Source: Clostridia bacterium
Lineage (GTDB): Bacteria; Bacillota; Clostridia; Oscillospirales; CAG-272
Direction of reading: 5' to 3'
Assembly (NCBI GenBank): GCA_017461745.1
Contig: JAFTXE010000018.1
Span: 564 to 64,563 of the forward strand
Length of the DNA: 64,000 bases
In this document: positions 31,537 to 54,398 of the stretch, piece by piece
Numbering within the stretch: the stretch's first letter is position 1
Layout: each line of letters begins with the position of its first letter
The notes under the pieces: model-generated
The model's database searches: none
Seen by the model: only the letters and a program-made list of their open reading frames with translations
Told to the model about the DNA's origin: nothing
Made by a program: the position numbers and the translations under genes

Positions 31537-31574
31537 CCCGTGGTGGCATCTATTCTGTCAAGATAACACAAAAA

Positions 31575-31676
31575 ATCCAACTCGAAAGAGTTGGATCAGA
31601 TTACTGACAAAGGGTTCAGGACTATGGTTCTGAGCCCTTTGTCAGTAATCTGAGGGCACCATTAGGTGTCCTTTTT
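31575..31676 (+). ncRNA. candidate small structured RNA: three consecutive hairpins ending in a terminator
   Basis: ATCCAACTC-GAAA-GAGTTGGAT; 18-bp perfect stem CAGATTACTGACAAAGGG/CCCTTTGTCAGTAATCTG; GGGCACC-ATTA-GGTGTCC+T5. Confidence 0.3.
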
Positions 31677-31798
31677 GCTAATTAAATAAAATTTTATTTT
31701 TATTTTGTCGAATTTCTTGTTTTTATATTGAATTTTTGAAAAAAGTGTGTTATACTTAAAGTAAATTTTATGCTATAAGCATATAAAAGGAGGATTTT

Positions 31799-40082: not shown

Positions 40083-40111
40083 TTGACAAGGTGGCATAAT
40101 TGTGATATAAT
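40083..40111 (+). promoter_or_regulatory. consensus promoter TTGACA-17-TATAAT for the TA pair
   Basis: -35 at 40083..40088, -10 at 40106..40111. Confidence 0.55.
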
Positions 40112-40139
40112 AATACTACCAAGTGAAAGGAGATTAGAT

Positions 40140-40436
40140 ATGAACAACTCTATTTCAATAAGACCGTCAAAGGATATTCGCACGAACTATGCACAGATCT
40201 CCACTCTGACGAGAAGCAATCCTGTTGCCATAACGGTTAACGGAAAGGAAGATACTGTTCTTCTCAGTCACGAATATTTTCAGGCTCAGCAGAATTATAT
40301 TGCGGAGCTTGAAACTAAGCTTGCGGTATATGCGCACTTGGCGCAAGCGATGGACGACATAAAGCTCGGCAGAGTTCAAGACGCAGATGATGCTTACGAT
40401 GATATTATTGCGGAAATGGAGAGCTTCGATTTATGA
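40140..40436 (+). CDS. type II antitoxin (Phd/YefM-like)
   Basis: 98 aa from the ATG after GGAGA; IRPSKDIRTNYAQISTL...PVAITVNGKEDTVLLS pattern; overlaps the toxin start by 4 nt. Confidence 0.7.
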   Translation: MNNSISIRPSKDIRTNYAQISTLTRSNPVAITVNGKEDTVLLSHEYFQAQQNYIAELETKLAVYAHLAQAMDDIKLGRVQDADDAYDDIIAEMESFDL

Positions 40437-40762
40437 GCTTTAAGATCAAGTTCACCGATACCGCCAAAGAAGATCTTCGCAACATTGCCATATATATAGC
40501 TGAGCAGTCTAAGGATAAGAAAATTGCCATCGACCTTGTTAATGAATTGAGAGAAAAAACAAAAATTCTTGAGACCTTTCCTGAGTGCGGTGCAATTCCC
40601 GATGACAGAATAATGAAAAACTCGAATTATCGTTTTTTAGTCTGCAAGGAATATTTGATTTTTTATCACTATGTTTCTGAAGATAATACCTCTTATGTTT
40701 TGGCTGTTTTTAATTCAAAACGCGACTATTCAAGAGTAATGAGAAGATTTGTAAAAAAATAA
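40433..40762 (+). CDS. type II toxin, RelE/ParE family
   Basis: 109 aa; FTDTAKEDLRNIAIYI..., YRFLVCKEYLIFY pattern. Confidence 0.75.
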   Translation: MSFKIKFTDTAKEDLRNIAIYIAEQSKDKKIAIDLVNELREKTKILETFPECGAIPDDRIMKNSNYRFLVCKEYLIFYHYVSEDNTSYVLAVFNSKRDYSRVMRRFVKK

Positions 40763-40765: not shown

Positions 40766-40814
40766 AGTTGGACACATTATAGCGGTTTTACCCAAATGAT
40801 GTGTCCAACTTTTT
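40766..40814. terminator. bidirectional terminator hairpin, copy c1 of 4
   Basis: AGTTGGACACATTAT...ATGATGTGTCCAACT + T4; same hairpin family at 43685, 47149 and 53291. Confidence 0.65.
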
Positions 40815-40826
40815 ATTGATATACTT

Positions 40827-40875
40827 GTAGGGGCGTGCATTGCACGTCCGTGGACGACACGATGGTCGCTCCTAC
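40827..40875. repeat. GTAGGGGCG...CTCCTAC palindromic element
   Basis: GTAGGGGCGTGCATTGCACGTCCGTGGACGACACGATGGTCGCTCCTAC; near-identical at 43743..43791. Confidence 0.65.
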
Positions 40876-40893
40876 GGAAGCATTTAATCGAGA

Positions 40894-40921
40894 CTTGTTT
40901 GCTTGCCTCTTCGATAGCAAC
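40894..40921 (-). pseudogene. 28-bp remnant of the GGGtGRT gene 3' end (copy c1)
   Basis: Reverse complement encodes VAIEEASK followed by CAA instead of a stop; matches 53400..53427. Confidence 0.45.
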
Positions 40922-40957
40922 ATTGTTTGCGCGAACCGATATTTTTTATTGCACGTA

Positions 40958-40986
40958 TTGACAACCGTCGATGTATATGATATAAT
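40958..40986 (+). promoter_or_regulatory. consensus promoter TTGACA-17-TATAAT
   Basis: -35 at 40958..40963, -10 at 40981..40986. Confidence 0.55.
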
Positions 40987-41018
40987 GTATACAAATTTAT
41001 ATTGAACGGGAGAAGCTT

Positions 41019-42113
41019 ATGTTTGATAACGTAAAACACAATTTTGGCTTTGGTTGTATGCGACTGCCTATGACGGACGGTGAGGTAGATACGGCGGAAT
41101 TTAACCGAATGATAGATACCTTCATACAGGCAGGCTTTAATTATTTTGATACCGCGCACGGTTACATTGACGGAAAAAGCGAACGGGCTATTCGCGAATG
41201 CCTTACCTCAAGATATGAGAGAGAAAGCTATATACTCGCAAATAAGCTCTCAGACTGGTTTTTCAAAACCGAGGCTGAGGTCCGTCCGTTATTTGAGGAA
41301 CAGCTTCGGATATGCGGTGTCGATTACTTTGATTTCTATTTATTCCACGCCCTCAATCGCAACTCGTATAAAAAGCACAAGGAGTGCAACAGCTTTGAGA
41401 TAGTAAAACAATTGAAAAGCGAGGGAAAGGTAAAGCATATAGCAATGTCCTTTCACGACACGGCTGACATACTCGATATGATACTTTCCGAGCAGCAACA
41501 GATCGAGGCTGTACAATTGCAGATAAACTATCTTGACTACGACGACCCGGGTGTGCAGAGCAAAAAGTGCTATGACGTCGCCGTCAAGCATGGCAAGAAG
41601 ATAATCGTCATGGAGCCTGTCAAGGGCGGCGCTTTGGTAAATCTCCCGCCTGACGGAGTTGCCGAATTCCAAAAGCTCGGCAATGCCGCCCCCGTCTCTT
41701 ACGCGCTCAGATACGCCGCAAGCTTTCCCGAGGTATTTATGGTGCTTTCGGGCATGGGAAGCATGGAGATGATGGAATCAAATATCAAGACGATGTATCC
41801 TTTCGTTCCGCTGAATAAAAACGAGCTTAAAGCTACTGACCGAGTCAGAGACATTATCCGCAAGTACAAGCAGATCCCCTGTACGAAATGCAGATATTGC
41901 GCGGAGGTTTGCCCCAAGAACGTTCCTATCGCAGACCTGTTTGCCACGTATAACGAATACGCCTTGGCAAGAGTGACGAAGAAGCAAACGCGAGAAAGCC
42001 TTGCGTCATTCGACGTCAAGGCAAGTGATTGCGTTGAGTGCGGCAAGTGCGAGAGCATCTGTCCTCAAAGCATTGATATTCGCCAAAAATTAAAGAATCT
42101 TGCAAAATTGTGA
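41019..42113 (+). CDS. aldo/keto reductase fused to a C-terminal 2x[4Fe-4S] ferredoxin-like domain
   Basis: 364 aa; FGCMRLP, FDTAHGY AKR motifs; CTKCRYCAEVCP and CVECGKCESICP clusters. Confidence 0.85.
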   Translation: MFDNVKHNFGFGCMRLPMTDGEVDTAEFNRMIDTFIQAGFNYFDTAHGYIDGKSERAIRECLTSRYERESYILANKLSDWFFKTEAEVRPLFEEQLRICGVDYFDFYLFHALNRNSYKKHKECNSFEIVKQLKSEGKVKHIAMSFHDTADILDMILSEQQQIEAVQLQINYLDYDDPGVQSKKCYDVAVKHGKKIIVMEPVKGGALVNLPPDGVAEFQKLGNAAPVSYALRYAASFPEVFMVLSGMGSMEMMESNIKTMYPFVPLNKNELKATDRVRDIIRKYKQIPCTKCRYCAEVCPKNVPIADLFATYNEYALARVTKKQTRESLASFDVKASDCVECGKCESICPQSIDIRQKLKNLAKL

Positions 42114-42132
42114 TCTATAAGGAGATATTGAA

Positions 42133-42681
42133 ATGGAAAAAACGCTACGCAGAACAATAATCAAAATATCAAAGGAAGCCGCTTTTATACTTATCACTAT
42201 AGTAAGCGCGGTGATCCTTCCCCAAATATTCCACGGCGTCGGCATGTTGCTCGGCATTGGCGGAAAACTTGGTCAGATTTTTCTTCCCATGTATATCCCC
42301 GTTCTGCTGATCGGTTTTTATCGCGGATCTGCTTCGGGCGCTGTCACGGGCTTGCTTGCTCCGCTTGTCAGCTTTGCCATCACGGGAATGCCCGCCGAGA
42401 CTCTCTTGCCGTATATTACGCTTGAATTAGTCGCAACGGGAGCGCTTGCAGGCATTTTTGCGAAAGCAAAGCTTCCTGCCTTCGTTCGTGTGCTTTCCGT
42501 TCAAGTCGCAGCTAAGATAATTCGTCTTGTCGCATTTGCAGCTTCTCTTTATTTGGCAAACGGAACGGTAGCCGCGTCCGCGTTGTTTTCAGGTATTCTC
42601 ATATCTATCCCGGGCGTCGTTCTTCAGCTGGGTCTTGTGACGTATTTAACGATCAAAAAGGAGAAAAAGCTCGGTGAATAA
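42133..42681 (+). CDS. membrane protein resembling an ECF-transporter S component
   Basis: 182 aa, about 6 TM, G/A-rich helices. Confidence 0.5.
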   Translation: MEKTLRRTIIKISKEAAFILITIVSAVILPQIFHGVGMLLGIGGKLGQIFLPMYIPVLLIGFYRGSASGAVTGLLAPLVSFAITGMPAETLLPYITLELVATGALAGIFAKAKLPAFVRVLSVQVAAKIIRLVAFAASLYLANGTVAASALFSGILISIPGVVLQLGLVTYLTIKKEKKLGE

Positions 42682-43366
42682 GCAAATCCAAACTGCCCGT
42701 CAGAAATTGATTGACGGTGAATACACGTGCGTATTGCAGGTCAACGGCGAAGAATACTGCTCGCGCGAGCGTGGCGTAAAGCCCTTGATATCCCTTTTGC
42801 AAACGGGCAATTCATTCGTCGGAGCAATTGCCGCCGACAAAACGGTAGGCGCAGGGGCGGCACACCTATACGTGCTGCTCGGTATTCACGCCTTGTGGGC
42901 AAATATAATAAGCGAATCGGCAATACAGATACTCAAAAAACACAACGTACAGATCCTGTACGGCGAATGTGTTCCTCATATCATCAATCGTCAGGGCAAC
43001 GGCATCTGCCCCATCGAATCCGCCGTCACCGATGCGAAAAGCTCCCAGGAGGCTTACGATTTGATAGTAGCCGCATTAGAACGGCTTCAGAAAAGCAAGG
43101 ATGCCGAGGTCGCAACGAAAATATTCAAGGCTCTTGCCGACGAAAATCGCCTTGAGATAATGGAAATACTGATAGACGGTGAAAAATGCGGTTGTGAGCT
43201 TCTCAAAGCTCTTAAAATAGGACAGCCTACCCTCTCGCACCACATGCATATACTGTGCGATGCGGGGTTGGTCGATTCCTTCAAAAAGGGTAAATGGACG
43301 CACTATTCAATAAGCGCCGAGGGTTCGGCTCAGCTTATGCGACTGGTCGAAAAATACAAAAAATAA
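42674..43366 (+). CDS. DUF1893-like domain fused to an ArsR/SmtB HTH regulator
   Basis: 230 aa, GTG start overlapping the previous gene; C-terminus FKALADENRLEIMEIL...CGCELLKALKIGQPTLSHHMHIL is a canonical ArsR HTH. Confidence 0.7.
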   Translation: MNKQIQTARQKLIDGEYTCVLQVNGEEYCSRERGVKPLISLLQTGNSFVGAIAADKTVGAGAAHLYVLLGIHALWANIISESAIQILKKHNVQILYGECVPHIINRQGNGICPIESAVTDAKSSQEAYDLIVAALERLQKSKDAEVATKIFKALADENRLEIMEILIDGEKCGCELLKALKIGQPTLSHHMHILCDAGLVDSFKKGKWTHYSISAEGSAQLMRLVEKYKK

Positions 43367-43383
43367 GGACCTCCTAAAATTAA

Positions 43384-43617
43384 AGACATATCTGAAATTG
43401 ATAAAATCTTCCGTGTAGGTTCAAATATAAACAAAGCGGGGATAAAATTTTACGATGTAAAAGTCGCCTCGCTCACCGTACACGGACTTATGTATTCGGA
43501 CACCGAATTCCGCTAAGCGTTGGAGAAAACGTCAGTGACAGAGTCAAGAATCTTAATTACAACACAGCGGGTGGAAGAATACGCTTCAGAACCGACAGTC
43601 CGTACGTCGCTATATAT
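43384..43617 (+). pseudogene. fragment of an SGNH-hydrolase N-terminal domain (stop + frameshift, truncated)
   Basis: Two frames give KDISEIDKIF...VHGLMYSDTEFR* and ENVSDRVKNLNYNTAGGRIRFRTDSPYVAIY, matching DTAGGRIRFSTDSQYVAIK of the intact paralog at 16090..17181. Confidence 0.55.
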
Positions 43618-43684
43618 CGATGGCAAAAGCTCCTATCAGCCTTATTAAAACGTAAAATCTTCTTTAAAATGTAAAACAAAAAAC

Positions 43685-43729
43685 GGACACATCACAAGGA
43701 AAAATTCCAAATGATGTGTCCAACTTTTT
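43685..43729. terminator. bidirectional terminator hairpin, copy c2
   Basis: GGACACATCA...TGATGTGTCC + AACTTTTT. Confidence 0.6.
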
Positions 43730-43742
43730 ATTGTTTTATTTT

Positions 43743-43791
43743 GTAGGGGCGTGCATTGCACGTCCGAGGACGACACGATGGTCGCCCCTAC
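43743..43791. repeat. GTAGGGGCG...CGCCCCTAC palindromic element
   Basis: GTAGGGGCGTGCATTGCACGTCCGAGGACGACACGATGGTCGCCCCTAC. Confidence 0.65.
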
Positions 43792-43810
43792 GGAAGCCTT
43801 TAATCAAGAC

Positions 43811-43994
43811 TTATTTGCTCGCTTCTTCAATAGCGACTGCAACCGCAACGGTCATACCAACCATGGGGTTGTTACCTGCGCCGATGAGTCCCATCATCTC
43901 TACGCTCTCGGGAACGCTGTCGGAGCCGTAGCACTTAACCTTAGCTCCGTCACCGTTTGAGTAAGCGGACCTCTTAACTACGTTAACCTCCTCG
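43811..43994 (-). pseudogene. GGGtGRT gene 3' remnant with internal in-frame deletion (copy c2)
   Basis: Encodes ...AYSNGDGAKVKCYGSDSVPESVEMMGLIGAGNNPMVGMTVAVAVAIEEASK*, matching two separated parts of the intact gene at 53400..54398. Confidence 0.75.
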
Positions 43995-44103
43995 GCATTC
44001 TCGCAAAAAATGCAGGCAGTGTATATTGCCACGTTACGTACATTATAACACGTTTTTGCGGTTTAACGTAACGTTCACAAACGTTTCCAAACACTATTAT
44101 ATA

Positions 44104-44601
44104 TTACAAATAGGAGAAGATGAGATGCGCACTGTGCGCATCGAGCTTGCTAACATCCTGTATCTCGTATCTGTTGTCGTTTGCATCGCGGATGATGACT
44201 CTATTAGTCGGATGAAGCTTTTTTATATCGTTGTGTCTGTTGCGTATACCGAAGATTACCCTTCCATGATTGGTGTCCACCGTCCACTTAAGCGTTCCGA
44301 ATTTGTCCTCTACGCTAACAACGCTCTGTATCTTCGGAATCATGTAATATTCAGAGAAGCACTCATCAAGAGCCTTTACCGATTCCTCGTCGAGTTCCGC
44401 GATATCTCTGACAAACCCAATTTCCTTTTCCTCCGAATCGAGTAGGGTGATGTACATATTATGGTTGGTTAAAGGGAACAGCCTACGCGGCTCAAGGTCC
44501 TCGATAATACTGCCGTCTTTTTTTATAAGGCGAACGAGGTACATATCTGTTTTTTCAAGTTTTCCTGTATATTTATCGATATAATATCTTCCCATGACCA
44601 T
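44104..44601 (-). CDS. DUF1854-like protein (partner of the upstream ABC exporter)
   Basis: 165 aa; RRLFPLT, KEIGFVRD, YMIPKIQSV, LKWTVDTNHG, IRDANDNRYEIQDVSKLD pattern recalled for this family. Confidence 0.6.
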   Translation of the reverse strand: MVMGRYYIDKYTGKLEKTDMYLVRLIKKDGSIIEDLEPRRLFPLTNHNMYITLLDSEEKEIGFVRDIAELDEESVKALDECFSEYYMIPKIQSVVSVEDKFGTLKWTVDTNHGRVIFGIRNRHNDIKKLHPTNRVIIRDANDNRYEIQDVSKLDAHSAHLIFSYL

Positions 44602-44607
44602 TCCTCC

Positions 44608-46881
44608 TTATTCAAAGTTTTCGGCACGCTTGGACTCTGCGACCTTGTCTGACATGGACTGTATTTCGACAAGACGGTAATATTTGCCCTTAAGTGCCAT
44701 TAGCTCTGCGGGAGTACCGCATTCGATTATCTCTCCATTATCCACAACGACTATCTTATTTGCCTTGGAAAGAGTAGATAGTCTGTGAGCTATCATTATA
44801 GTGGTCCTACCACTTATCAGACGCTCAATTGCGTCTTGTATGAGGTGCTCGGTTTCGGAGTCGACAGATGCCGTCGCCTCATCAAACACGAGCATCTTGG
44901 GGTTTCTAAGCATTGCGCGCGCGATTGATATTCGCTGACGTTCTCCTCCCGAAAGTCCCACTCCGCGCTCACCGAGCACAGAGTCATATCCGTCAGGTTG
45001 ACGTACTATAAATTCATGAGCGTTTGCAATATCCGCCGCATTTATAACCTCGTCAACCGAGAAGTTGCCGTTACCATAGGCAATATTGTTATATATAGTG
45101 TCATGGAACATCTGGGACTCCTGCTGGACGTAACCGATGTGAGAGCGGTAATATTGCATATCTATTTTGCGGATATCCACTCCGTCAATGGTGATTTTTC
45201 CTTCGTATGTGTCGTAATAGCGAAGGAGAAGATTTATGAGCGTTGATTTTCCCGAGCCTGTCGTACCGACGATACCGACGATGTCCCCGGGTTCTATTGA
45301 GAGATTTATATTTTTAAGAACCTTTTTAGTGCGGTCGAAGGAGAAATTTACGTTCTTAAATTCTATGCGTCCGCCCATATTGACATTTGTGTTGCCCTTG
45401 CCGAAATCATGCTCAGGCTCGGCGTCAAGGATGTCCATGATACGCTCGAGTGAAGCCATCGCGTTCTGCATGGAGTCGGAGAGGTTCGCAAAGAAGTTTA
45501 CCGGCTCATAGAACATCGTTGCGTAGGAGATAAAGGAAACGAGCAGACCAACGGATATCGCGCTTCCGTTACCAGTGGAAAGGCCGTTGATGACCATATT
45601 TCCGCCCATCGCCCATATAATGACACTTCCGCAGCTCATTAGGCAATTTACGATAGCGGGATACGCGTTGAGTATCTTGCCGGCCTTGGTGTCGATTCTG
45701 CGCCAATCGTCAACACATTCACCGAAGCGCTCGGTGGCATTCTTCTCGTTGGTGTACGACTTTGTTACGCGGATACCCGGTATAGTATCGGCAAGCACGG
45801 ATGTGACCGCGGATGAGCGCCTCCATATGCGTCTGTAAAACGGCGCTATCTTCTTTTTGAAGATACGCGAGCCGATAACGACCAAAGGTACGGGAAAAAG
45901 CGAGAATAGCGTCAGCTTCCAATCTATGCAAAGCATAACGACTACAATGCCGATGAGCTTGAAGAATTGTACGACGACCTCTTGAGTGATACGGAGCATA
46001 AACGCCTGAATTGTTGCGGTATCTCCGCTTATTCGGTTAATAACTGATCCTGTAGAGGTCTTGTCGTAGAAGCGCATAGGAAGATACTGCGCCTTCTCGT
46101 ATACCTCACACCGTATGCGAGCGACTATTTTATCTCCCGACACACGGAGCATATATCCCCGTATACCTGCGAGCAGATAGTGAATTACATGTAGACAAAC
46201 AAGCATTACAACGACCGTCGCGAGAAGGCGGCTGTTTTTATTCGGTAGTATCTCGTCGACAAGTGTCCTTGTAAGAATCGGTGGAACAAGTGCAAGAGCT
46301 GTCGTAATTATAGAGATGATGACGGATATTACAAGTATTGGAAGCTCAGGCTTCAGATATCCGCCCAACCGTGAGAGAAGTCTCTTTTTTTTCATACAGT
46401 GAATACAGGGAACTCCTGGAGCGGATAGAGTGCGTCCGCATTTGGGACATATCGACAGCATCTTTTCGTATACTGCCTGCATCGTGGCGAACGCCTCCGC
46501 CACGGGCTCTCCGTCGCGAATACCCGTGGCGTAAGTCAAAACGGCATCGCAAAGAGCTGCGACGGTAAAGGTGAATCTGAATACGTCGTGAAGGACTCCG
46601 TCCTTCGTTTGAATACGCATGATGCCGTTTCCGTACATACGCTTATTAAAAATATTGTGGATATTCTTAAATGAGTAGCGTTCCGAGCAGGTTTGTGTTT
46701 TGAAATCGTAGATAAAAAGACACGAGCCTGTCGCCAAAAGCACACATGTACTATACTGTGCATGTTTTGATATTTCACCGACAACAGCCAACAAAACGGG
46801 ATCATCCTCCGTACCCAAAGAACGTATTACTTCGAGCTTCGAAGCATCCAGTTTCTGATTAATTAAAATAGTGGTTTCCAT
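44608..46881 (-). CDS. ABC exporter (fused TMD-NBD) with about 170-aa N-terminal PH-like + zinc-ribbon extension
   Basis: 757 aa; CPKCGRTLSAPGVPCIHC; Walker A GTTGSGKST, signature LSGGERQR, Walker B MLVFDEATS. Confidence 0.85.
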   Translation of the reverse strand: METTILINQKLDASKLEVIRSLGTEDDPVLLAVVGEISKHAQYSTCVLLATGSCLFIYDFKTQTCSERYSFKNIHNIFNKRMYGNGIMRIQTKDGVLHDVFRFTFTVAALCDAVLTYATGIRDGEPVAEAFATMQAVYEKMLSICPKCGRTLSAPGVPCIHCMKKKRLLSRLGGYLKPELPILVISVIISIITTALALVPPILTRTLVDEILPNKNSRLLATVVVMLVCLHVIHYLLAGIRGYMLRVSGDKIVARIRCEVYEKAQYLPMRFYDKTSTGSVINRISGDTATIQAFMLRITQEVVVQFFKLIGIVVVMLCIDWKLTLFSLFPVPLVVIGSRIFKKKIAPFYRRIWRRSSAVTSVLADTIPGIRVTKSYTNEKNATERFGECVDDWRRIDTKAGKILNAYPAIVNCLMSCGSVIIWAMGGNMVINGLSTGNGSAISVGLLVSFISYATMFYEPVNFFANLSDSMQNAMASLERIMDILDAEPEHDFGKGNTNVNMGGRIEFKNVNFSFDRTKKVLKNINLSIEPGDIVGIVGTTGSGKSTLINLLLRYYDTYEGKITIDGVDIRKIDMQYYRSHIGYVQQESQMFHDTIYNNIAYGNGNFSVDEVINAADIANAHEFIVRQPDGYDSVLGERGVGLSGGERQRISIARAMLRNPKMLVFDEATASVDSETEHLIQDAIERLISGRTTIMIAHRLSTLSKANKIVVVDNGEIIECGTPAELMALKGKYYRLVEIQSMSDKVAESKRAENFE

Positions 46882-46929
46882 CGCAACGGTTTAGCTAGCA
46901 AGCAATCTCCTCATTCAAATTTTTTGGTT

Positions 46930-46958
46930 ATTATACTACATGAAAAAACAAAAGTCAA
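46930..46958 (-). promoter_or_regulatory. consensus promoter TTGACT-17-TATAAT on minus strand
   Basis: Reverse complement of 46930..46958 = TTGACTTTTGTTTTTTCATGTAGTATAAT. Confidence 0.55.
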
Positions 46959-47148
46959 CACTTTTTCGGGATTTTTCGTAATTTTGTGATATTCTCTAAA
47001 AACTTGTCCTATTAGTAAAAACATTACCAATAATAAGAGAAAATAATTAGTGATATCAACGAAAAAATCTACATAAAAAAGGGGTGACTTTTTTGAATAA
47101 AACTGATATAATAATGTGTTATAATAAAATAGTACTAATAAAAAAACA

Positions 47149-47194
47149 GACACATCATTTAGAATTTTCACCTAAATGATGTGTCCAACTTTTT
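47149..47194. terminator. bidirectional terminator hairpin, copy c3
   Basis: GACACATCATTT...AAATGATGTGTC + CAACTTTTT. Confidence 0.6.
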
Positions 47195-47198
47195 ATTT

Positions 47199-47367
47199 GA
47201 TGATTTGCAATCTTCGATTGCATGAATTGATGCTTTCGCGTCATGATTTGAAGGCTTTCGCCTTCATGAATTGAATTGCCCCATAATGCACCGCAGGTGC
47301 AATTCATGGCGATAGCCAATTCATGACAACGAAATTGTCAAATCATGCCCGCAAGGGCAATTCATTG
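47199..47367. repeat. phased array of eight CATGAWTTG 9-mers (4 forward, 4 reverse) separated by mini-hairpins
   Basis: Forward copies at 47199, 47221, 47242, 47265; reverse copies at 47300, 47317, 47339, 47358; spacers are self-complementary (e.g. GAAGGC-TTTC-GCCTTC, CCC-GCAA-GGG). Confidence 0.65.
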
Positions 47368-47381
47368 CAAATAATCTGCGA

Positions 47382-47472
47382 TTATTTGCTTGCTTCCTCA
47401 ATAGCAACTGCAACCGCAACGGTCATACCAACCATGGGGTTGTTACCTGCTCCAATGAGTCCCATCATCTCT
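47382..47472 (-). pseudogene. displaced 91-bp 3' end of the GGGtGRT gene (copy c3, attL-like)
   Basis: Encodes EMMGLIGAGNNPMVGMTVAVAVAIEEASK*, identical in protein to the intact end at 53400..53490; about a dozen nucleotide differences, all synonymous. Confidence 0.8.
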
Positions 47473-47565
47473 TTGTAAATTCAACTGAAGCGTTTCAAAA
47501 CGCTTGTAAATCAAGGGGTTAGACACATAGCTCCTTCAGGAAAACTAGTCACATCATCGACAGCT

Positions 47566-47593
47566 ATTATAACAGGAAATAGCAACCTGTCAA
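47566..47593 (-). promoter_or_regulatory. outward-facing promoter TTGACA-16-TATAAT near the left end of the element
   Basis: Reverse complement of 47566..47593 = TTGACAGGTTGCTATTTCCTGTTATAAT, reading toward 47472. Confidence 0.4.
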
Positions 47594-47773
47594 GTGGTTC
47601 TTGAGAAATTGTTGTAGGTGTTGTAAGTGCTTCGACAAAACTATTTTCTCTTTACTTTTTCATGAGAGTGTGCCGATTTTATTCTAATTAAATTTTTACT
47701 TAATTTTTGGAGCGCGGATTTGAGCGTGGCAGAGCATAAAAATAGTGGCTTTGTTAGTTTTTTCTTGAATCTA

Positions 47774-47802
47774 TTGATTTTCGGTCATTATTGTGGTATA
47801 AT
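47774..47802 (+). promoter_or_regulatory. promoter TTGATT-17-TATAAT for the collagen-like lipoprotein gene
   Basis: -35 at 47774..47779, -10 at 47797..47802; about 270-nt leader follows. Confidence 0.5.
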
Positions 47803-47808
47803 ATAAGG

Positions 47809-47984
47809 GCCAAATCAATCGAATAAATGCGTTATCAGTGTATATTTCTCTTTAGGGGAACTATACTCTTTTTGGCGTGCTTACATAGTAGAATTTGATA
47901 AAAATGCAAATTCCGACTATGTGAGCATGTATACACTGTTTCGCATTAGATTGGTTTGGCGACTATTCGGAGTTTGCGTTTTTT
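47809..47984 (+). promoter_or_regulatory. structured 5' leader / candidate invertible segment (copy L2)
   Basis: Inverted repeats 47826..47844 and 47930..47947, hairpin block A 47891..47918, 17-mer block B 47967..47983 identical to 23084..23100 (rc). Confidence 0.55.
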
Positions 47985-48014
47985 GTGCGCTTGCTTCGGT
48001 AGGCGCACTTTTTT
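47985..48014 (+). terminator. intrinsic terminator inside the leader
   Basis: GTGCGC-TTGCTTCGGTAG-GCGCAC followed by TTTTTT, 67 nt before the ATG. Confidence 0.55.
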
Positions 48015-48081
48015 GTTTTTTGACAAAAAAAGCAAAAAATTACGACTTATATTATTGAGGGGAAAAAAGGAGGAATTTGCA

Positions 48082-50529
48082 ATGCTGAACTTCAAAAAGG
48101 TCATTTCACTATGTCTGTGTCTTGTGATGCTTGTGGGTGTTCTTGCGTCTTGTGACGAGGGCACGCAAGGGATACAGGGTGAGCAAGGTATTCAAGGAGA
48201 ACAAGGAATACATGGCGAGCAGGGTGTTCAAGGCGAACAGGGGGAAAAAGGAGACAAGGGCGACAAAGGTGACAAAGGTGATGACGGTGTAAGTCCGACT
48301 TTAGCAATCAGTGATGACGGCTATTGGGTAATCAATGGCACAAAGACTAATTTCAAAGCAACGGGTACGGACGGGCAGAACGGCACGGACGGTGTAACGC
48401 CATCAATCACAATCAATGCTGATGGTTATTGGGTTATCAATAATGTCGTATCTGAATATAAGGCGGTCGGCAAGGACGGTGTAGACGGAAGCACTCCAAC
48501 GGTCGAGATTAGTAACGATGGCTATTGGGTACTTAACGGAACAAAGACTGCTCATAAGGTCATCGGTCAGAATGGATTGGATGGCGAAGACGGAAAAGAT
48601 GGAGCAGACGGAAAAACGCCCGCTCTGCGCATCAATTCTGAAACAAATGAGTGGGAAGTCTCTTATGACGATGGAGAAAATTGGACTTCACTCGGTGTAA
48701 AAGCGACAGGAGCGAACGGCTCTGACGGCAAAGACGGTCAAAATGGTACAAACGGAAAAGATGGCAAAGACGGTGCTGATGGTATAACGCCGGCACTGCG
48801 CATCAATGCTGATAATGAATGGGAAGTCTCTTACGACAATGGAACTACTTGGGCGTCTCTTGGTGTAAAGGCTACGGGTGCTAATGGTAACGATGGTGCT
48901 GATGGCGAAGACGGTCAAGATGGTCAAGACGGCGCAAACGGCGTAGATGGCATATCTCCGAAAATACGCATCAATGCGGAAAATTATTGGGAGGTATCTT
49001 ACGATAATGGAACAACTTGGGCATCTCTCGGCGTGAAAGCGACTGGCGCAGATGGTCAAGATGGAACAAATGGTACGAACGGCACGAATGGTACAAACGG
49101 AAAAGATGGTGAGGACGGTGCTGACGGTATAACCCCGAAACTGCGCATCAATTCTGAAAATAATGAATGGGAAGTCTCTTACGATAACGGCGAGAATTGG
49201 ATTTCTCTCGGCGTGAAAGCGACGGGCGCTGACGGTCAAGATGGAGCGAATGGTTCTAATGGAACAAACGGAACGAATGGTACGAATGGAGTTAACGGAA
49301 AGACTCCTCGGTTAAGAATCAATTCTGAAAGCAACGAGTGGGAAGTTTCTTATGACGATGGAGAGCATTGGACTTCTCTCGGAGTAAAAGCGACAGGCGC
49401 TGACGGTCAAGATGGAGCGAATGGTTCTAACGGAATAAACGGAACGAATGGCGACGACGGCGCAACGATTGCATCTATCGTATTCAACGAAGAGGGCAAG
49501 TTGGTTATTACGATGACTGACGGCACAGAGTTCATCGTTGATATGCCTGAGAAAGAAGAGCATGTACACAGTTATAGCGAATTGATTGATTATAGTAATG
49601 ATGCAAGTCTATCTTGTACGGAGAGAATGTACTATCAGTTTTGTGCGAGTTGTAGTGAGATAAGGTGGTGCTTGGGTAAGCATAATTTTTCTGAAGGATA
49701 TTATAGCGATGGAACTCATCATTGGTTCGATTGCTATAACTGTGACGAAAAACTTGGCTTTGAAGAGCATACATATAATTTTTACGGTTTTTGCACATGC
49801 GAATCTGACATGGGGCCATCAGACAGTGTTATTTATGGAGTTTCTGAAGATGGCTCGCATGCAGTGGTTACAGGCTATACGGGTTCAGATGCTAAAGTAG
49901 TTATTGCTTCTCAATACGGAGATTTGCAAGTACTTGAAATTGCAGAGAGAGCGTTTGAGAATACTGATGTTGAGACGGTAATTATTTCTGGAAGCATCAT
50001 GTACATTGGTGAATATGCTTTCGCTGACTGTTCAAATCTCTCTAGAGTTTCAACGATGGAAGGTGTTGCGTTTATAGACAGATATGCTTTTGCTAATTGT
50101 ATCAGTCTCAAAACTATAGACATAGCTAATGTCGATGCAATCAATGCATGCGCTTTTTCGGGATGTAGTGCTTTGGATGGTGTTACACTTTCAGAGGATA
50201 TGGAATTTATAACAGGTGGTCTCTTTGAAAATTGCAGTAGTCTTACGAACATCACGATTCCGAGCAATGTGACACTTATTGGAAACGACGCTTTTAGTGG
50301 ATGCAGTAGTCTTAGATGTGTTGAACTTTCTAACAATCTTAAAAGCATTGGTGGAAGTGCTTTTAGTGGTTGTACAAGCTTGGGAAATATTACACTTCCA
50401 GATAGTATAGAAAGTATTGGAGAAAATGCATTTGAAAGTTGTTTGGGGTTAACAAGTATTGTACTTCCACAAAATATCACTGACATCTGCTATATTATCA
50501 TGAACATATCGTTGAATATGGCAAAGTAG
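48082..50529 (+). CDS. surface lipoprotein: collagen-like G-X-Y repeats + modular repeats + Cys-rich region + BspA-type leucine-rich repeats; C-terminus apparently truncated
   Basis: 815 aa from MLNFKK (AAGGAGG RBS; lipobox LASC); 43 G-X-Y triplets at 48160..48288; LRR units like VTLIGNDAFSGCSSL; ends abruptly after ITDI. Confidence 0.75.
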   Translation: MLNFKKVISLCLCLVMLVGVLASCDEGTQGIQGEQGIQGEQGIHGEQGVQGEQGEKGDKGDKGDKGDDGVSPTLAISDDGYWVINGTKTNFKATGTDGQNGTDGVTPSITINADGYWVINNVVSEYKAVGKDGVDGSTPTVEISNDGYWVLNGTKTAHKVIGQNGLDGEDGKDGADGKTPALRINSETNEWEVSYDDGENWTSLGVKATGANGSDGKDGQNGTNGKDGKDGADGITPALRINADNEWEVSYDNGTTWASLGVKATGANGNDGADGEDGQDGQDGANGVDGISPKIRINAENYWEVSYDNGTTWASLGVKATGADGQDGTNGTNGTNGTNGKDGEDGADGITPKLRINSENNEWEVSYDNGENWISLGVKATGADGQDGANGSNGTNGTNGTNGVNGKTPRLRINSESNEWEVSYDDGEHWTSLGVKATGADGQDGANGSNGINGTNGDDGATIASIVFNEEGKLVITMTDGTEFIVDMPEKEEHVHSYSELIDYSNDASLSCTERMYYQFCASCSEIRWCLGKHNFSEGYYSDGTHHWFDCYNCDEKLGFEEHTYNFYGFCTCESDMGPSDSVIYGVSEDGSHAVVTGYTGSDAKVVIASQYGDLQVLEIAERAFENTDVETVIISGSIMYIGEYAFADCSNLSRVSTMEGVAFIDRYAFANCISLKTIDIANVDAINACAFSGCSALDGVTLSEDMEFITGGLFENCSSLTNITIPSNVTLIGNDAFSGCSSLRCVELSNNLKSIGGSAFSGCTSLGNITLPDSIESIGENAFESCLGLTSIVLPQNITDICYIIMNISLNMAK
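48616..49465 (+). repeat. five tandem coding repeats of about 165-180 bp
   Basis: Units TP(A/K/R)LRIN..NEWEVSYD(D/N)G..W.SLGVKATGA(N/D)G + variable G-X-Y run. Confidence 0.75.
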
Positions 50530-50709
50530 AGGGTATATACTATCAAGAGTAGATTTATATTGGCGCCCTAACACTTTACATACATCATTGGGTAGCCATA
50601 CACTACACTGATTTTTAGCGAATTCTAACTTTGCTTCACTTGGAAGATATTCACTAGTAAAGTTTGATTCATCTGCATCTAAGATATTTAATAACCAATT
50701 CTTATACAT
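50449..50709 (-). CDS. hypothetical 86-aa protein, possibly a truncated Bro-N/antirepressor-like fragment
   Basis: AGGAG RBS 7 nt before the ATG; WLPNDVCKVLG resembles the Bro-N motif; the last 80 bp overlap the convergent LRR gene. Confidence 0.35.
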   Translation of the reverse strand: MYKNWLLNILDADESNFTSEYLPSEAKLEFAKNQCSVWLPNDVCKVLGRQYKSTLDSIYPLLCHIQRYVHDNIADVSDILWKYNTC

Positions 50710-50732
50710 TACTACACTCCTACAAACAATCA

Positions 50733-50832
50733 TCTCTATTAGTGTAAAAACTCATATATAAGCATATTATAACACACACATAATGAAATGTCAAACAGAA
50801 TATAATAGTCTCTCTATTAGTGTAAAAACTCA
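50733..50832 (-). promoter_or_regulatory. consensus minus-strand promoter bracketed by two 22-bp direct repeats
   Basis: TCTCTATTAGTGTAAAAACTCA at 50733..50754 and 50811..50832; between them the reverse complement reads TTGACA(50794..50789)-17-TATAAT(50771..50766). Confidence 0.55.
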
Positions 50833-50884
50833 CCATCCAAAAAAACATAAAGCAGACGAGAATTCCCGTCTGCTCAACTAATAT

Positions 50885-51445
50885 TCAAACACCATATTCT
50901 CTGACCCACCTATAAAAAGTCGTAGATGTAATACCGAACGCTTTCTGTATGCTCACTGCCGTTCGCTCATTATCACGCCACTCTTTACAGAGCCTTACAA
51001 ATTTGCTCTTATCAATATCCATACGCTTTCTGCCCTTATAGACACCGTTTGCCTTGGCGATAGCAATACCCTCCGACTGACGCTGAAGAAGACCTTCTCT
51101 CTCCATCTGCGCAAGAGCCGCGAAAATTGTGAGCATGAACTCGCCTTGCGGAGTTGCTGTGTCGATAGACTCCTTCAGACTAACGAACTTCACACTCTTA
51201 TTCTGCAGCTCATCTGTGATAGCGAGCAAGTCACGAGTGTTACGAGCAATTCTGCTGAAGCTCTCACAGATGACTGTATCGCCCTCTCTGACGAACGCCA
51301 ACATCTTTTGCAGTTCCACTCTGTCTGCGTTCTTACCGCTCGCCTTATCCATAAAGATTCTGTCAGCACAATGTTCCTTTGCCATAGCGACCTGTCTTGC
51401 CTCGTTTTGCTCAAGCGTCGAGCATCTGATGTAGAATACCTTCAT
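50885..51445 (-). CDS. small serine recombinase (resolvase/invertase family)
   Basis: 186 aa from MKVFYIRCSTLEQ; catalytic Ser region, C-terminal HTH GITSTTFYRWV. Confidence 0.85.
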   Translation of the reverse strand: MKVFYIRCSTLEQNEARQVAMAKEHCADRIFMDKASGKNADRVELQKMLAFVREGDTVICESFSRIARNTRDLLAITDELQNKSVKFVSLKESIDTATPQGEFMLTIFAALAQMEREGLLQRQSEGIAIAKANGVYKGRKRMDIDKSKFVRLCKEWRDNERTAVSIQKAFGITSTTFYRWVREYGV

Positions 51446-51652
51446 TTTCAAATTCCTTTCTGAAGTGTTATTTTAGAGTGGCTGTTTTTCATGTTGCGTA
51501 ACTTAATTCGATATAGAACCCTAATGTTGCAATTTGCGAGTATCACTTTGAAGTATAGTCTAAAGTGATATAAAATCGTTTGCGAAAAATTGTATATATA
51601 AATAGAGAAATATAGCAATCTCAAATCATATAACCTCAAAGGAGAAGAAACA

Positions 51653-51853
51653 GTGAAATATAACAGATACGATTATCCGATGTTGCTGAAGAAGAAGCAC
51701 ATCAAAGATATCGGGATTTCGGAAGGCTTTTATTACAAATTAGTCAAGACCCATCAACTGCCTACCCTCAAACTGAACAACAGAACCTACATCAACCGAG
51801 ATGCGTTCTTTGATTTGCTTGAACAGAGGACCACCGTTGTAGAAACAGAGTAA
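51653..51853 (+). CDS. small HTH DNA-binding protein (excisionase/MerR-like)
   Basis: 66 aa, GTG after AAAGGAG; LLKKKHIKDIGISEGFYYKLVKTHQLPTLKLNNRTYI pattern. Confidence 0.55.
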   Translation: MKYNRYDYPMLLKKKHIKDIGISEGFYYKLVKTHQLPTLKLNNRTYINRDAFFDLLEQRTTVVETE

Positions 51854-52035
51854 TGAAAACATCTACCCTTATCTGTAATATGAATGGCGACCCTCACCTT
51901 GTTGTTATTACTTGCTCTTCAGAAAAAGATTATATCAAGTGCAGAGGGAAGAAAAAACCTCGTGAGACAAACAACATTCATATAAAACTTGTAAATTTAA
52001 GGAGCCAAAACAATGAAAATAAAAAATCTAACTGA
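51853..52035 (+). CDS. hypothetical small protein
   Basis: 60 aa; start overlaps the previous stop (TAATG). Confidence 0.3.
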   Translation: MKTSTLICNMNGDPHLVVITCSSEKDYIKCRGKKKPRETNNIHIKLVNLRSQNNENKKSN

Positions 52036-52321
52036 AACACCCACTCCCATGCACTTCTCATTGCTTCATCAAGAAAGTAGCATGTCAGAGACAGTATACG
52101 ACGATGACATATCCAACATAGAAGATGCCTTTAACATCCCGATTCCAGCCGATACAACCGAGCCGTGTGCTTTGTTTATCGTATCCGACATTGGAATCTT
52201 TGCAGTAGAGAACATGACCTTGAAAGATGTAATACTGCTCATTCGCAAAAACAACTTCAAAGAAACCTCTGTTGAGATGATACCGCAGGAGTTGGTTGAG
52301 AAACTGACTGTGCGAAAATGA
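52013..52321 (+). CDS. hypothetical protein
   Basis: 102 aa; AAGGAG RBS. Confidence 0.4.
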   Translation: MKIKNLTETPTPMHFSLLHQESSMSETVYDDDISNIEDAFNIPIPADTTEPCALFIVSDIGIFAVENMTLKDVILLIRKNNFKETSVEMIPQELVEKLTVRK

Positions 52322-53260
52322 TTACCTCATCTTAATACTCAACCTTCCCGAAAACTTATCCAAGAGATTGAGTTCATTGACTTGCTTTGCCACATCACTG
52401 ACGAGAAGGTTGAGATAATTCTGCGTAATATCGAGACTGCTATGACCAAGCATTTTAGAGAGGGAAACCACATTGCCACCGCTTAACACCCATTGTTTAG
52501 CGAAAGTGTGTCTGTATCTGTGTATGCCCGTCCTCTCAACACCGCGACGCTTATTATACTCGTACAGCATATGATAACAGGTGCTCTTGACGAGTTGCTG
52601 ACCGTACGCATTGCAGAACAGATAGTCGTCCGTGTTCTTATGCTTACGATATTTCAAAAACTCTTTCAGTACATTTGCCATTGTTTGATTGACGGGCACG
52701 ATGAGCGGTTTTCTATTCTTTGTAACATTGACATAGACCACATTGTTATCGAAATCCACATCCTTGACCTTGATGTTCATAAGACTGCGCTGCCTAACAC
52801 CCGTACTGAAGAGAAAAGTCGTAATCACCCACGCTTGATACTCCGTAAAATTGCACTGCTTGATGTTGGGCTTTTTCAACAGTGCTCTTAATTCGTCCTC
52901 TGTGTAAGTCTCGATGCCGCTTTTATCTACTTTAATTGCTTGCATCTTGAACCGCTCAAGATAGCCCTCGTCCATGAGAAAGTGAAGCGTTGTTATCAAG
53001 TCGCGCAAGTAAGAATTGATACTGACATCATTGTGCAGTATCTTTTTCAGATGCAGAACATAACTCTTGTAAGCGTCCGCATCCATATATTCAATCGGCA
53101 TATCGGGGTCAAAGAATTTATAGAACTGCGTGTAACTCTGTTTGTAGTGATTGATAGTACCTTCTCTCAAATTGCGCTGTCTGCAATTGTCGAGATATTT
53201 GTTACAGCCGTCCTCAAAAGTAAACGCATCACTCGCATCCATTTTCAATCTTTTCATCAT
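52322..53260 (-). CDS. tyrosine-type site-specific integrase
   Basis: About 312 aa from an ATG after GAGGTG (the ORF opens at TTG 53272); TGVRQRSL (Arg), HRYRHTF (H-x-x-R), LGHSSLDITQNYL (His...Tyr). Confidence 0.85.
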   Translation of the reverse strand: MMKRLKMDASDAFTFEDGCNKYLDNCRQRNLREGTINHYKQSYTQFYKFFDPDMPIEYMDADAYKSYVLHLKKILHNDVSINSYLRDLITTLHFLMDEGYLERFKMQAIKVDKSGIETYTEDELRALLKKPNIKQCNFTEYQAWVITTFLFSTGVRQRSLMNIKVKDVDFDNNVVYVNVTKNRKPLIVPVNQTMANVLKEFLKYRKHKNTDDYLFCNAYGQQLVKSTCYHMLYEYNKRRGVERTGIHRYRHTFAKQWVLSGGNVVSLSKMLGHSSLDITQNYLNLLVSDVAKQVNELNLLDKFSGRLSIKMR

Positions 53261-53282
53261 TTCACCTCGCAAAAATCAGTAT

Positions 53283-53336
53283 AAAAAAACTAGACACATC
53301 ATGACGGTTTTACCCGAAATGATGTGTCTAACTTTT
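53283..53336. terminator. bidirectional terminator hairpin, copy c4 (functional terminator of the intact GGGtGRT gene)
   Basis: A7-C-TAGACACATCAT...ATGATGTGTCTA-ACTTTT. Confidence 0.65.
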
Positions 53337-53399
53337 ATTTACTTGATTTTACAAGTTTCAGTCGCTACAAGAGTTTGAAAAAGTCTTGTGGCGTCTGAC

Positions 53400-54398
53400 T
53401 TACTTGCTTGCCTCTTCAATCGCAACCGCTACAGCAACAGTCATACCAACCATGGGGTTGTTACCTGCGCCGATAAGTCCCATCATCTCTACGTGTGCGG
53501 GAACGGAGGAAGAGCCTGCGAACTGAGCGTCGCCGTGCATACGACCCATGGTGTCGGTCATACCGTAGGAAGCGGGACCTGCTGCCATGTTGTCGGGGTG
53601 GAGCGTACGACCCGTACCGCCGCCCGATGCAACAGAGAAGTACTTAACGCCGTTCTCGTTACACCACTTCTTGTACGTTCCTGCAACGGGGTGCTGGAAT
53701 CTGGTGGGGTTGGTGGAGTTACCCGTAATGGAAACGCCAACGTTCTCAAGGCGCATGATAGCAACACCCTCGGGAACGCTGTCAGAGCCGTAGCACTTAA
53801 CCTTTGCTCTGTCGCCGTTTGAGTAAGCGGTCTCCTTAACTACGCTGACTTCCTCAGTGTAGGGGTCAAACTGTGTCTGAACGTAAGTAAAGCCGTTGAT
53901 TCTGGAAATGATCATAGCGGCGTCCTTGCCAAGACCGTTGAGTATTACTCGGAGGGGCTTAACTCTTACCTTGTTTGCGTTAAGAGCGATCTTAATAGCT
54001 CCCTCTGCTGCTGCGAAGGACTCGTGACCTGCAAGGAAGCAGAAGCACTCAGTCTCCTCAGAGAGAAGCATAGAGCCGAGGTTTCCGTGTCCGAGACCAA
54101 CCTTACGGTTCTCAGCAACGGAGCCCGGGATACAGAAAGCCTGAAGTCCGATACCGATAGCGGCAGCGGCGTCAGCAGCCTTGGTGCAGCCCTTCTTTAT
54201 TGCGATAGCAGCGCCTACGGTGTAAGCCCACTTAGCGTTTTCAAATGCGATAGGCTGAGTTTCCTCAACTATCTTATAGGGGTCGATACCCTTAGCGGCG
54301 CAGATTTCCTTGCACTCATCGATAGAGGAAATTCCGTATTCCTTAAGTACGCCGAGGATCTTCGCCTCGCGTCTTTCATAACCTTCAAAATGTGCCAT
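53400..54398 (-). CDS. GGGtGRT-family protein (conserved, function unknown)
   Basis: 332 aa; contains the eponymous SGGGTGRTLHP motif; family name recalled from public annotations. Confidence 0.8.
   Translation of the reverse strand: MAHFEGYERREAKILGVLKEYGISSIDECKEICAAKGIDPYKIVEETQPIAFENAKWAYTVGAAIAIKKGCTKAADAAAAIGIGLQAFCIPGSVAENRKVGLGHGNLGSMLLSEETECFCFLAGHESFAAAEGAIKIALNANKVRVKPLRVILNGLGKDAAMIISRINGFTYVQTQFDPYTEEVSVVKETAYSNGDRAKVKCYGSDSVPEGVAIMRLENVGVSITGNSTNPTRFQHPVAGTYKKWCNENGVKYFSVASGGGTGRTLHPDNMAAGPASYGMTDTMGRMHGDAQFAGSSSVPAHVEMMGLIGAGNNPMVGMTVAVAVAIEEASK

Follow-up and report, generated by a model that had tools for sequence, protein, structure and literature searches.

The window analysed here, a 64-kb stretch of contig JAFTXE010000018.1 from a Clostridia bacterium (GCA_017461745.1), carries on its minus strand an intact, full-length GGGtGRT gene (53400..54398; PF14057, E 7e-192). 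This gene is the last one in the conserved block PTAC-GDSL-NifU-like-GGGtGRT, and its upstream synteny is kept in L001, L006, L035, L037, and L148 (loci and contigs used for comparison are given L numbers). Four units are present in the window, each consisting of a GGGtGRT gene end, a spacer, and a hairpin made of GACACATCAT and its inverted counterpart. The first two units bracket a 6,018-bp island, termed E1, which extends from the core sequence at 53440-53468 to that at 47422-47450. The DNA between the second and third gene ends (47472..43811) is called segment 2, and that between the third and fourth is called segment 3. This study deals with the origin of this array and with the role of the GGGtGRT 3' end as a site of integration.

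The four gene-end copies all lie on the minus strand. Copy 1 (53400..53490; core 53440-53468) is the end of the intact gene and the attL of E1, and copy 2 (47382..47472, 91 nt; core 47422-47450) is its attR. Copy 3 (43811..43994; core 43851-43879) matches both 53397-53505 and 53769-53855, and the offsets of the two alignments differ by 273 bp, that is, by a 91-codon in-frame deletion with its junction in the microhomology CGGGAACG. The stretch of copy 3 at 43994-43907 is a GGGtGRT fragment of foreign origin (88.5% identity to the native gene), and the part to the right of the deletion junction (43916-43811), continuing into segment 3, is 98% identical to strain L087. Copy 4 (40894..40921) consists of the last 28 nt of the gene end without the core, with TAA changed to CAA. 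Copies 1 and 2 differ at 11 positions, copies 1 and 3 at 10, and copies 2 and 3 at 5, every one of them third-position and synonymous; when 11 substitutions were placed at random between copies 1 and 2, 0 of 200,000 placements gave an all-synonymous outcome. The attL and attR of another island, L107, also differ at 11 positions, again all synonymous. Since the copies in the window and those in L107 alike differ only at third positions and only synonymously, the gene-end mimic appears to be under purifying selection. The original prediction, made from the letters of the window, had described the four units of hairpin and gene end, an in-frame deletion of ~0.27 kb in copy 3, about a dozen synonymous differences between copies 1 and 2, and a fourth copy of 28 bp that had lost its stop codon. 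Each of these was recovered at the coordinates and with the values given above.

GACACATCAT has ten matches in the window when one mismatch is allowed, and eight of these make up the four hairpins as inverted pairs (53293/53328, 47149/47185, 43686/43720, and 40771/40805). Shuffled sequence contained a mean of 2.6 matches, and none of 100 shuffles reached ten. Hairpin 1 (53291..53330, minus strand, as are the other three), which is borne by E1, is terminator-like, with an A-tract on the 5' side, a T-tract on the 3' side, and an RNA folding energy of -23.3 kcal/mol, and lies ~30 nt before the start of the integrase gene (int). Hairpin 2 (47149-47185) was called a terminator by the rule of the scanner (17 pairs), hairpin 3 is located at 43685..43721, and hairpin 4 (40766..40810; -16.0 kcal/mol), one arm of which is degenerate, abuts a convergent ParE gene (stop at 40762). 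The spacers between gene end and hairpin measure 70 nt (copy 1), 197 nt (copy 2), and 90 nt (copy 3). Those of copies 1 and 2 are unrelated to one another and to those of copies 3 and 4; the spacer and hairpin of copy 3 are 90-91% identical to their counterparts in copy 4 (repeat family D8). Spacer 2 (47186-47381) is a chain of small stem-loops built on CATGAATTG/CAATTCATG, and a comparable chain of mini-hairpins (GCAATGAAATTTGCC and similar) follows the stop codon of GGGtGRT in L062.

When 32 distinct examples of the hairpin were compared, the outer arms, TT(G/A)GACACATCA and TGATGTGTC(C/T)AA, were nearly invariant and carried one covarying pair (G-C to A-T), and the inner stem and loop differed in 31 of the 32. 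The hairpins are preceded by an A-tract and followed by a T-tract, have RNA folding energies of -12 to -29 kcal/mol, and stand 25-40 nt ahead of the start codon of int, a distance that leaves no room for a promoter between them. The same hairpin precedes int in L002, L008, L021, L086, L088, L095-L115, and L135-L141. In ~1 Mb of related loci, it was found only downstream of GGGtGRT genes, and it is thus not the generic dispersed repeat that the original prediction had named as the case against itself. The simplest reading is that the hairpin is an element-borne bidirectional intrinsic terminator, which would end the repaired host gene and insulate int.

Read on the gene strand, E1 contains copy 1, hairpin 1, int, small open reading frames (ORFs), a serine recombinase gene, a 94-aa ORF, and a surface protein gene. 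int (52322..53272, minus strand; likely start 53260) encodes an Xer-like tyrosine integrase of 311-312 aa (PF00589, E 1e-32; PF13102). The protein is made up of a catalytic and a SAM-like core-binding domain, which leaves no space for an arm-binding one. In NCBIfam and PDB, it comes closest to XerA, XerC, and XerD, with scores far below the family cut-offs. R155, K180/K183, H246, R249, H272, and Y281 are invariant in 12 homologues; E1 is therefore structurally intact, and its integrase is probably active today. The second recombinase (50885..51451, minus strand) is a small serine recombinase of the resolvase/invertase type (PF00239, E 5e-41; phrog_125 DNA invertase, E 1e-60), and resolvase genes are also present in the related islands L135, L137, and L146. 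The earlier claim that only the innermost segment retains recombinases was borne out by tblastn, which detected no remnants of an integrase or resolvase outside 50885-53272 across the window, even at E = 10. Between the two recombinase genes lie three small plus-strand ORFs, which are also kept in L094 and have no PHROG match: an HTH_17 ORF (51653-51853; E 1e-4, below the Pfam cut-off), which is a candidate excisionase or regulator, and ORFs of 60 aa (51853-52035) and 102 aa (52013-52321). The HTH_17 ORF alone was scanned against NCBIfam, without a match. The surface protein (47956..50529, plus strand) combines a collagen-like GXY run, five to six repeats of 168-180 nt (DUF4988), and BspA-type LRR_5 repeats; LRR_5 proteins are a recurrent cargo of related islands (L097, L137, L138, and L146).

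Promoters were scored against the 12 positions of TTGACA-N16/17-TATAAT. Matches of 12/12 were obtained at 50794-50766 (minus strand, ahead of the 94-aa ORF at 50733-50449), 47593-47566, and 40958-40986, and one of 11/12 at 46958-46930, so that the segments have their own consensus promoters as had been foreseen. A 20-nt direct repeat, AGTTTTTACACTAATAGAGA, occurs on both sides of the promoter 50794-50766 (within 50740-50835), between the serine recombinase gene and the 94-aa ORF, and may constitute an operator pair. An invertible promoter serving the resolvase was considered for the same promoter and rejected, as it is accompanied by this direct repeat only and by no inverted repeats.

E1 has the sequence-level properties of an integrative island, namely a tyrosine recombinase, att repeats 6,018 bp apart, and a precise empty site. 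Neither a relaxase nor conjugation genes nor an oriT was found in E1 by Pfam and PHROG, or by NCBIfam for the products of int, the resolvase gene, and the HTH_17 ORF. With neither a conjugation module nor a relaxase/oriT match and a size of just 6 kb, E1 falls outside both the ICEs (integrative and conjugative elements) and the canonical integrative and mobilisable elements (IMEs). Phage structural, packaging, and replication genes were likewise absent from E1, in which PHROG matched the integrase and the invertase only. Among IMG/VR viral contigs there was no close relative of the integrase; the best matches were 24-25% identical, and the islands are therefore not phage-like.

The place of the exchange that inserted E1 can be read from the two flanking copies. 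To the left of the core, copy 2 is of element type (CTC ATT GGA, the sequence found in no host allele) and copy 1 reads host-like. To the right, copy 2 holds the displaced host gene end, which agrees with that of strains free of E1 (one difference from L089), and copy 1 carries the sequence supplied by the element, with eight private synonymous changes. Because copies 1 and 2 swap host and element type across the core, the exchange took place within the 29-nt core GCAGGTAACAACCCCATGGTTGGTATGAC, which is identical at 47422-47450 and 53440-53468. When the identity blocks of L107 are also taken into account, the exchange can be confined to GGTAACAACCC or ATGGTTGG, and the confined stretch carries an imperfect dyad, TAACAACC-CCAT-GGTTGGTA, which may be the binding site of the integrase. 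Direct att repeats with the shared identity block also flank the islands L107 and L135, which could be delimited completely, as could E1 (9,876, 9,392, and 6,018 bp, respectively). In these three islands, the homology of attR starts within ~6 nt of the same point, at ..GA(A/G)ATGATGGG, preceded in L107 and L135 by CGT(A/T). attP therefore includes the ~91-nt gene mimic as an inherited component. It had been predicted that the 29-bp core was a plausible crossover region and that the incoming element brought a functional replacement of the gene end; the exchange indeed maps inside the core, and E1 supplies a synonymous end together with its own terminator. The further claim that the copies used different crossover sites, as their junctions differ, need not hold: the extra length of copy 3 is better read as a longer attP arm, and the core is missing from copy 4 only.

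We looked up the exact GGGtGRT protein in public assemblies and compared strains in which it is 100% identical. L089, L090, and L092 have no E1: the gene runs directly into window positions 47472..46156 (99.2-99.5% identity), with the junction falling precisely on the left edge of copy 2 (47472). L087 has neither E1 nor segment 2, and its gene runs into 43916..40805 (98.3%). In L086 and in L088/L091, the gene is followed by other integrases (74-75% identical) and other cargo. Three nested states are thus represented, namely segment 3 by itself, segment 2 plus segment 3, and both of these together with E1, and they fit serial accretion in which each newcomer inserts beside the gene. The insertion hot spot with serially accreted islands that had been proposed is in keeping with these nested states, and the check suggested at the time, a search of relatives for empty or differently filled sites, yielded both strains free of E1 and strains with alternative islands.

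The linkage of the integrase to this target extends well beyond the species. The E1 integrase has 2,268 database relatives at E < 1e-20, more than 100 of them at ~77% identity. Among 80 species-representative genomes that have a related GGGtGRT gene, a homologue lies directly after GGGtGRT in L002, L008, and L021 (58-77% identity), and L052 and L077 have only distant, non-adjacent matches; in most of the 80, GGGtGRT is followed by unrelated terminators and no integrase. All 13 metagenome contigs with at least 100 nt upstream of int show the order GGGtGRT 3' end, hairpin, int, and so do L135-L141. The linkage holds across 54-80% integrase identity, and the hosts span uncultured Oscillospiraceae, Acutalibacteraceae, and Christensenellaceae-like metagenome-assembled genomes. 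No second gene-end copy was detected by blastn-short in the 10-kb downstream flanks of the 80 representatives, most of which are empty at the site or have islands longer than this flank. Two further species have arrays without an integrase. In L148, the gene end is present in copies at 6191 and 7683, and a hairpin lies at 6359. In L001, the GGGtGRT gene of which is 97% identical, the gene is followed by a hairpin, one 378-aa gene, and a second hairpin (11045-12455); the first hairpin is a GACACGTCA variant with compensatory changes in both arms, and the locus contains neither an integrase nor a gene-end copy. This arrangement looks like a fully decayed one-gene island.

Based on these results, we consider it probable, at roughly 85%, that the 3' end of GGGtGRT is the attB of a family of Xer-like integrases and that the window contains a tandem accretion array of which E1 is the newest member. 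The process was hypothesised to be as described below. attB would be the last ~90 nt of GGGtGRT, centred on GGTAACAACCCCATGGTTGG, which encodes GNNPMVG, and its users would be islands of 6-10 kb that are neither phage-like nor conjugative. The attP of such an island would consist of the ~91-nt gene-end mimic, a spacer, and the conserved terminator hairpin, followed by int. A crossover in the core would exchange the last ~14 codons of the gene for the synonymous version of the island, integration would thereby give the gene a new terminator, and the old gene end with its old terminator would be moved to the far side of the island. Behind E1, two older modules without an integrase follow, each ending in a displaced gene end and a hairpin.

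These two older modules are segments 2 and 3. Segment 2 encodes an ABC exporter (46881-44608) and a DUF1854 protein (44601-44104; an ORF of 165 aa, for which the public gene call starts later and gives 163 aa), both on the minus strand behind the 11/12 promoter at 46958-46930, which is on the same strand. It is 98.85% identical over 3,663 nt in L146 (GCA_045127215.1), where it sits behind a different island and before different genes, and where it is also accompanied by the foreign fragment of copy 3. The core is present at both of its ends (copies 2 and 3), and segment 2 has the structure of a cis-mobilisable element (CIME). Copy 3 is best read as a typical attR chimera, the element-side arm of which would be the long, internally deleted, foreign GGGtGRT fragment; such an element-borne arm explains the greater length of copy 3 without a different crossover site. 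On the plus strand, segment 3 carries the 12/12 promoter at 40958-40986, an Fe-S-domain aldo/keto reductase gene (41019-42113), the gene of an ECF-S-like membrane protein (42133-42681), and one for a fusion of DUF1893 and ArsR (42674-43366). With copy 3 at one boundary and the core-less copy 4 at the other, the segment shows the features of a CIME in part. The 90-91% identity between the spacers and hairpins of copies 3 and 4 indicates that the incoming and resident ends were close relatives. No recombinase or transfer domains of Pfam were found in segments 2 and 3. In line with the general model (PMC5704250), we infer that both segments are decayed islands of the CIME type; they would have arrived by the action of an integrase, either their own, since lost, or one acting in trans.

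Several observations weigh against serial site-specific accretion as the full account. The lack of integrase remnants in segments 2 and 3 makes their origin from decayed elements no more than putative, and, with copy 4 devoid of the core, segment 3 does not lie between two usable att sites. No strain without segment 3 was among those recovered. No excised circle or attP junction was seen; L097, in which an E1-like far end is followed by a gene-end mimic, a hairpin, and int, is readable as attP or as a tandem junction. In L148, the ABC-DUF1854 genes (88% identical) form one contiguous run, all in the same orientation, with genes for an Fe-S-domain aldo/keto reductase and a DUF1893 protein (10001-14530), so some of the cargo may be ordinary chromosomal neighbours elsewhere. 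Finally, a RecA crossover within the repeats would yield products identical to those of the integrase.

The last point leads to the alternative that fares best, namely that RecA-dependent homologous recombination between the gene-end repeats of ~90-110 nt and the hairpins, through Campbell-type insertion of circles or exchange after DNA uptake, for instance, moved both segments and shuffled modules from array to array. The segments would then have lacked an integrase from the start, and site-specific recombination would be confined to islands of the E1 type. Under this alternative, the missing integrase remnants need no explanation, the long foreign fragment in copy 3 offers more homology than an integrase site requires, and the right boundary of segment 2 in L146 is merely the end of the gene homology; moreover, synonymous variants are mixed in mosaic fashion at the 3' ends of host genes, to the left as well as to the right of the core (L087 and L093). 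The repeats are, however, short and 88-95% identical, which makes them poor substrates for RecA, the 29-nt core is intact at both ends of segment 2, and an integrase acting in trans gives the same products, as is documented for CIMEs (PMC5704250). We regard this alternative as possible yet clearly the less likely course for the two segments; it is compatible with integration at attB by the Xer-like integrases and does not exclude it.

Two further explanations fare far worse. The presence of an integrase beside an array of segments, each ending in a conserved imperfect palindrome, together with weak NCBIfam matches to the integron integrase, could suggest an integron-like cassette array in which the hairpins are attC-like sites where cassettes are captured. 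However, the junctions of E1 fall in the coding core, ~110-240 nt away from the hairpins, which have the A-tract/T-tract form of terminators; the score with the integron-integrase model is 50 bits, where the cut-off is 265; and the segments are 3-6 kb long, with several genes and their own promoters in both orientations. Such an array is thus very improbable. Still less credible is a local tandem or segmental duplication of gene end and terminator, by slippage or unequal crossing-over, with later insertion of genes. The similar spacers of copies 3 and 4 would be expected from it, but the unrelated spacers of copies 1 and 2 would not; differences that are synonymous only are those of independently selected functional ends, and both the precise presence/absence polymorphism and the linkage of integrase and target across species contradict it.

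Public contigs often have one of their ends within the final ~100 nt of GGGtGRT or a short way upstream of the integrase gene (L035, L037, L046, L059, and L095-L105), because the multi-allelic repeat confuses assemblers. Integration at this site explains such breaks in metagenome assemblies, and the att region is a point at which contigs from gut metagenomes break systematically. The breaks could raise the suspicion that the array is a chimeric contig from strain variants collapsed at the repeat, but this can be practically dismissed, as contigs L081-L085 from four different samples have the same arrangement at 99.97-99.99% identity and one 58-kb contig spans the whole array.

Integration of the islands at the GGGtGRT 3' end resembles systems described in other bacteria. 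A three-step model has been put forward (PMC5704250), in which integration is followed by decay to a CIME and then by a further integration at the att site containing the gene end, and ICE, IME, and CIME tandems are known in general from the 3' ends of genes for proteins or tRNAs (PMC5704250). As far as the original studies are reported there, fda of Streptococcus thermophilus accumulates ICESt1/ICESt3-type elements and CIMEs in tandem at its 3' end (Pavlovic 2004; Bellanger 2011; via PMC5704250). In both cases, a conserved gene is targeted at its 3' end by a tyrosine integrase and the element replaces the gene end, the newest element lies beside the gene with older integrase-less modules between att copies, and the site is polymorphic. 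Unlike in the fda arrays, the target is GGGtGRT (PF14057), which is new as such, as is the integrase clade; the islands are only 6-10 kb long and have no relaxase, type IV secretion system, or recognisable oriT, and the core of copy 4 has been lost. CIMEs were defined by cis-mobilisation experiments, and the segments described here are likened to them from sequence alone. As with islands and prophages at tRNA or tmRNA genes (for example, those with P4-type integrases), the 3' part of the target is included in attP, which keeps the gene whole, the far end is recognisable by a displaced 3' fragment, and tandem arrays form at hot spots. Unlike there, the target is protein-coding, so that the mimic is codon-constrained and all differences are synonymous, and, in contrast to integrases of the P4 and lambda types, the E1 integrase is short, Xer-like, and devoid of an arm-binding domain.

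XerA, XerC, and XerD, which are the closest relatives in sequence and solved structure, and the IMEs exploiting Xer recombination (IMEXs) share with the E1 integrase a length of ~310 aa and the SAM-like core-binding and catalytic domains, and the imperfect dyad in the E1 core is reminiscent of Xer sites. The E1 integrase differs in scoring far below the Xer cut-offs, in being encoded by the island, and in having its site in coding sequence and not at dif. Relaxase-less iOriT islands, which hitch on conjugative elements, have been reported in a study of six nosocomial species (E. coli, K. pneumoniae, Salmonella, V. cholerae, P. aeruginosa, and N. gonorrhoeae), hosts that do not include gut Clostridia (bioRxiv 10.64898/2026.01.13.699239). 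These islands are likewise small and att-delimited, contain an integrase and cargo but no transfer genes, and are often in tandem at one spot. In the present islands, unlike in iOriT islands, no oriT was identified, and the only candidate, the conserved inverted repeat, looks terminator-like. A literature search for GGGtGRT as an integration site returned thirteen papers naming the family, those listed being mainly proteomic and gut-microbiome studies, and the family appeared in no title or abstract. The process is a known one, site-specific tandem accretion with CIME-like remnants, acting at what is, by this search, a new target gene; the new features are the target gene, the clade and size of the integrase, the small architecture without transfer genes, and the conserved pair of hairpin and half-sites.

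The half-sites belong to the far end of E1 (47518..47593, minus strand), where the outward 12/12 promoter (47593-47566) is followed by ATGATGTGAC (47557-47548) and ATGTGTCTAAC (47528-47518). Directly after the promoter stands ATGATGTGACTAGTTTT and, 17 nt on, ATGTGTCTAAC, and both look like the hairpin's 3' arm. The far ends of L097, L107, L116, and L135 also have an outward promoter and, behind it, a motif of the type GATGTG(T/A), and L108 has a looser version, in which a -10-like TATGAT is followed by GACGTGTAT; the motif of L107 copies the unusual GTGTTC of its own hairpin. A copy of the 3'-arm sequence thus lies from a few to ~25 nt downstream of an outward consensus promoter at the island end opposite the hairpin. 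The hairpin arms are nearly invariant even though the integrases are only 55-80% identical and inner stem, loop, and spacer vary. The far-end motif may serve as an operator in common with the hairpin, or else as an antiterminator at the RNA level. One doubtful but conceivable explanation is that hairpin and far-end motif form an excision-coupled switch controlling int: in the excised circle, the far-end promoter would read across attP towards int, and the motif in the 5' untranslated region (UTR), or a protein binding both motifs, would decide whether the terminator forms, while int of the integrated island would be insulated from the highly expressed host gene. With the same pair of motifs, transcription from the far-end promoter would also be able to enter older islands downstream. 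The antiterminator version was examined by folding. In the minimum free energy structure of the full-length reconstructed attP transcript, the terminator is kept; the 5' arm pairs with the UTR motif in a truncated transcript only, and the antiterminator duplex (-14.9 kcal/mol) is weaker than the terminator's own stem (-19.2 kcal/mol). Pairing is therefore feasible but unsupported.

GGGtGRT is a conserved gene that has repeatedly been reported in gut and rumen proteomic studies, and its 3' end is a genomic-island hot spot in uncultured gut Clostridia. The site is a marker for strain-variable cargo such as BspA-type LRR surface proteins, ABC exporters, and toxin-antitoxin pairs. The attB and its integrase constitute a natural pair that might be turned into a means of genetic insertion for organisms lacking genetic tools. 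Moreover, successive stages of accretion are represented in a single species, a record seldom available except from cultured model systems. The array adds a case to a well-described process and not a new principle.

The far end of the array is flanked by a Phd/ParE toxin-antitoxin pair (40083..40762, plus strand), which is a candidate member of the array only. The far flank (Phd/ParE, a 533-aa membrane protein, and PFOR) showed no synteny with the closest species, L001. In L107, a Phd/ParE pair (13732-14287) follows attR, and its ParE is just 28% identical to that of the window; the pair, convergent to the last gene-end copy in both loci, may be a recurrent module of island ends or a coincidence. 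The four families divided between segments 2 and 3 on opposite strands (window 41019-46881) are those with contiguous members in L148, and the gene order there may mean a functional link among the ABC-DUF1854, aldo/keto reductase, and DUF1893 families or a common chromosomal origin. Elsewhere in the window, the stretches 8000-10000, 21000-23000, and 29000-32000 have a G+C content of 0.31-0.39, compared with ~0.47 in the remainder, and may be acquired.

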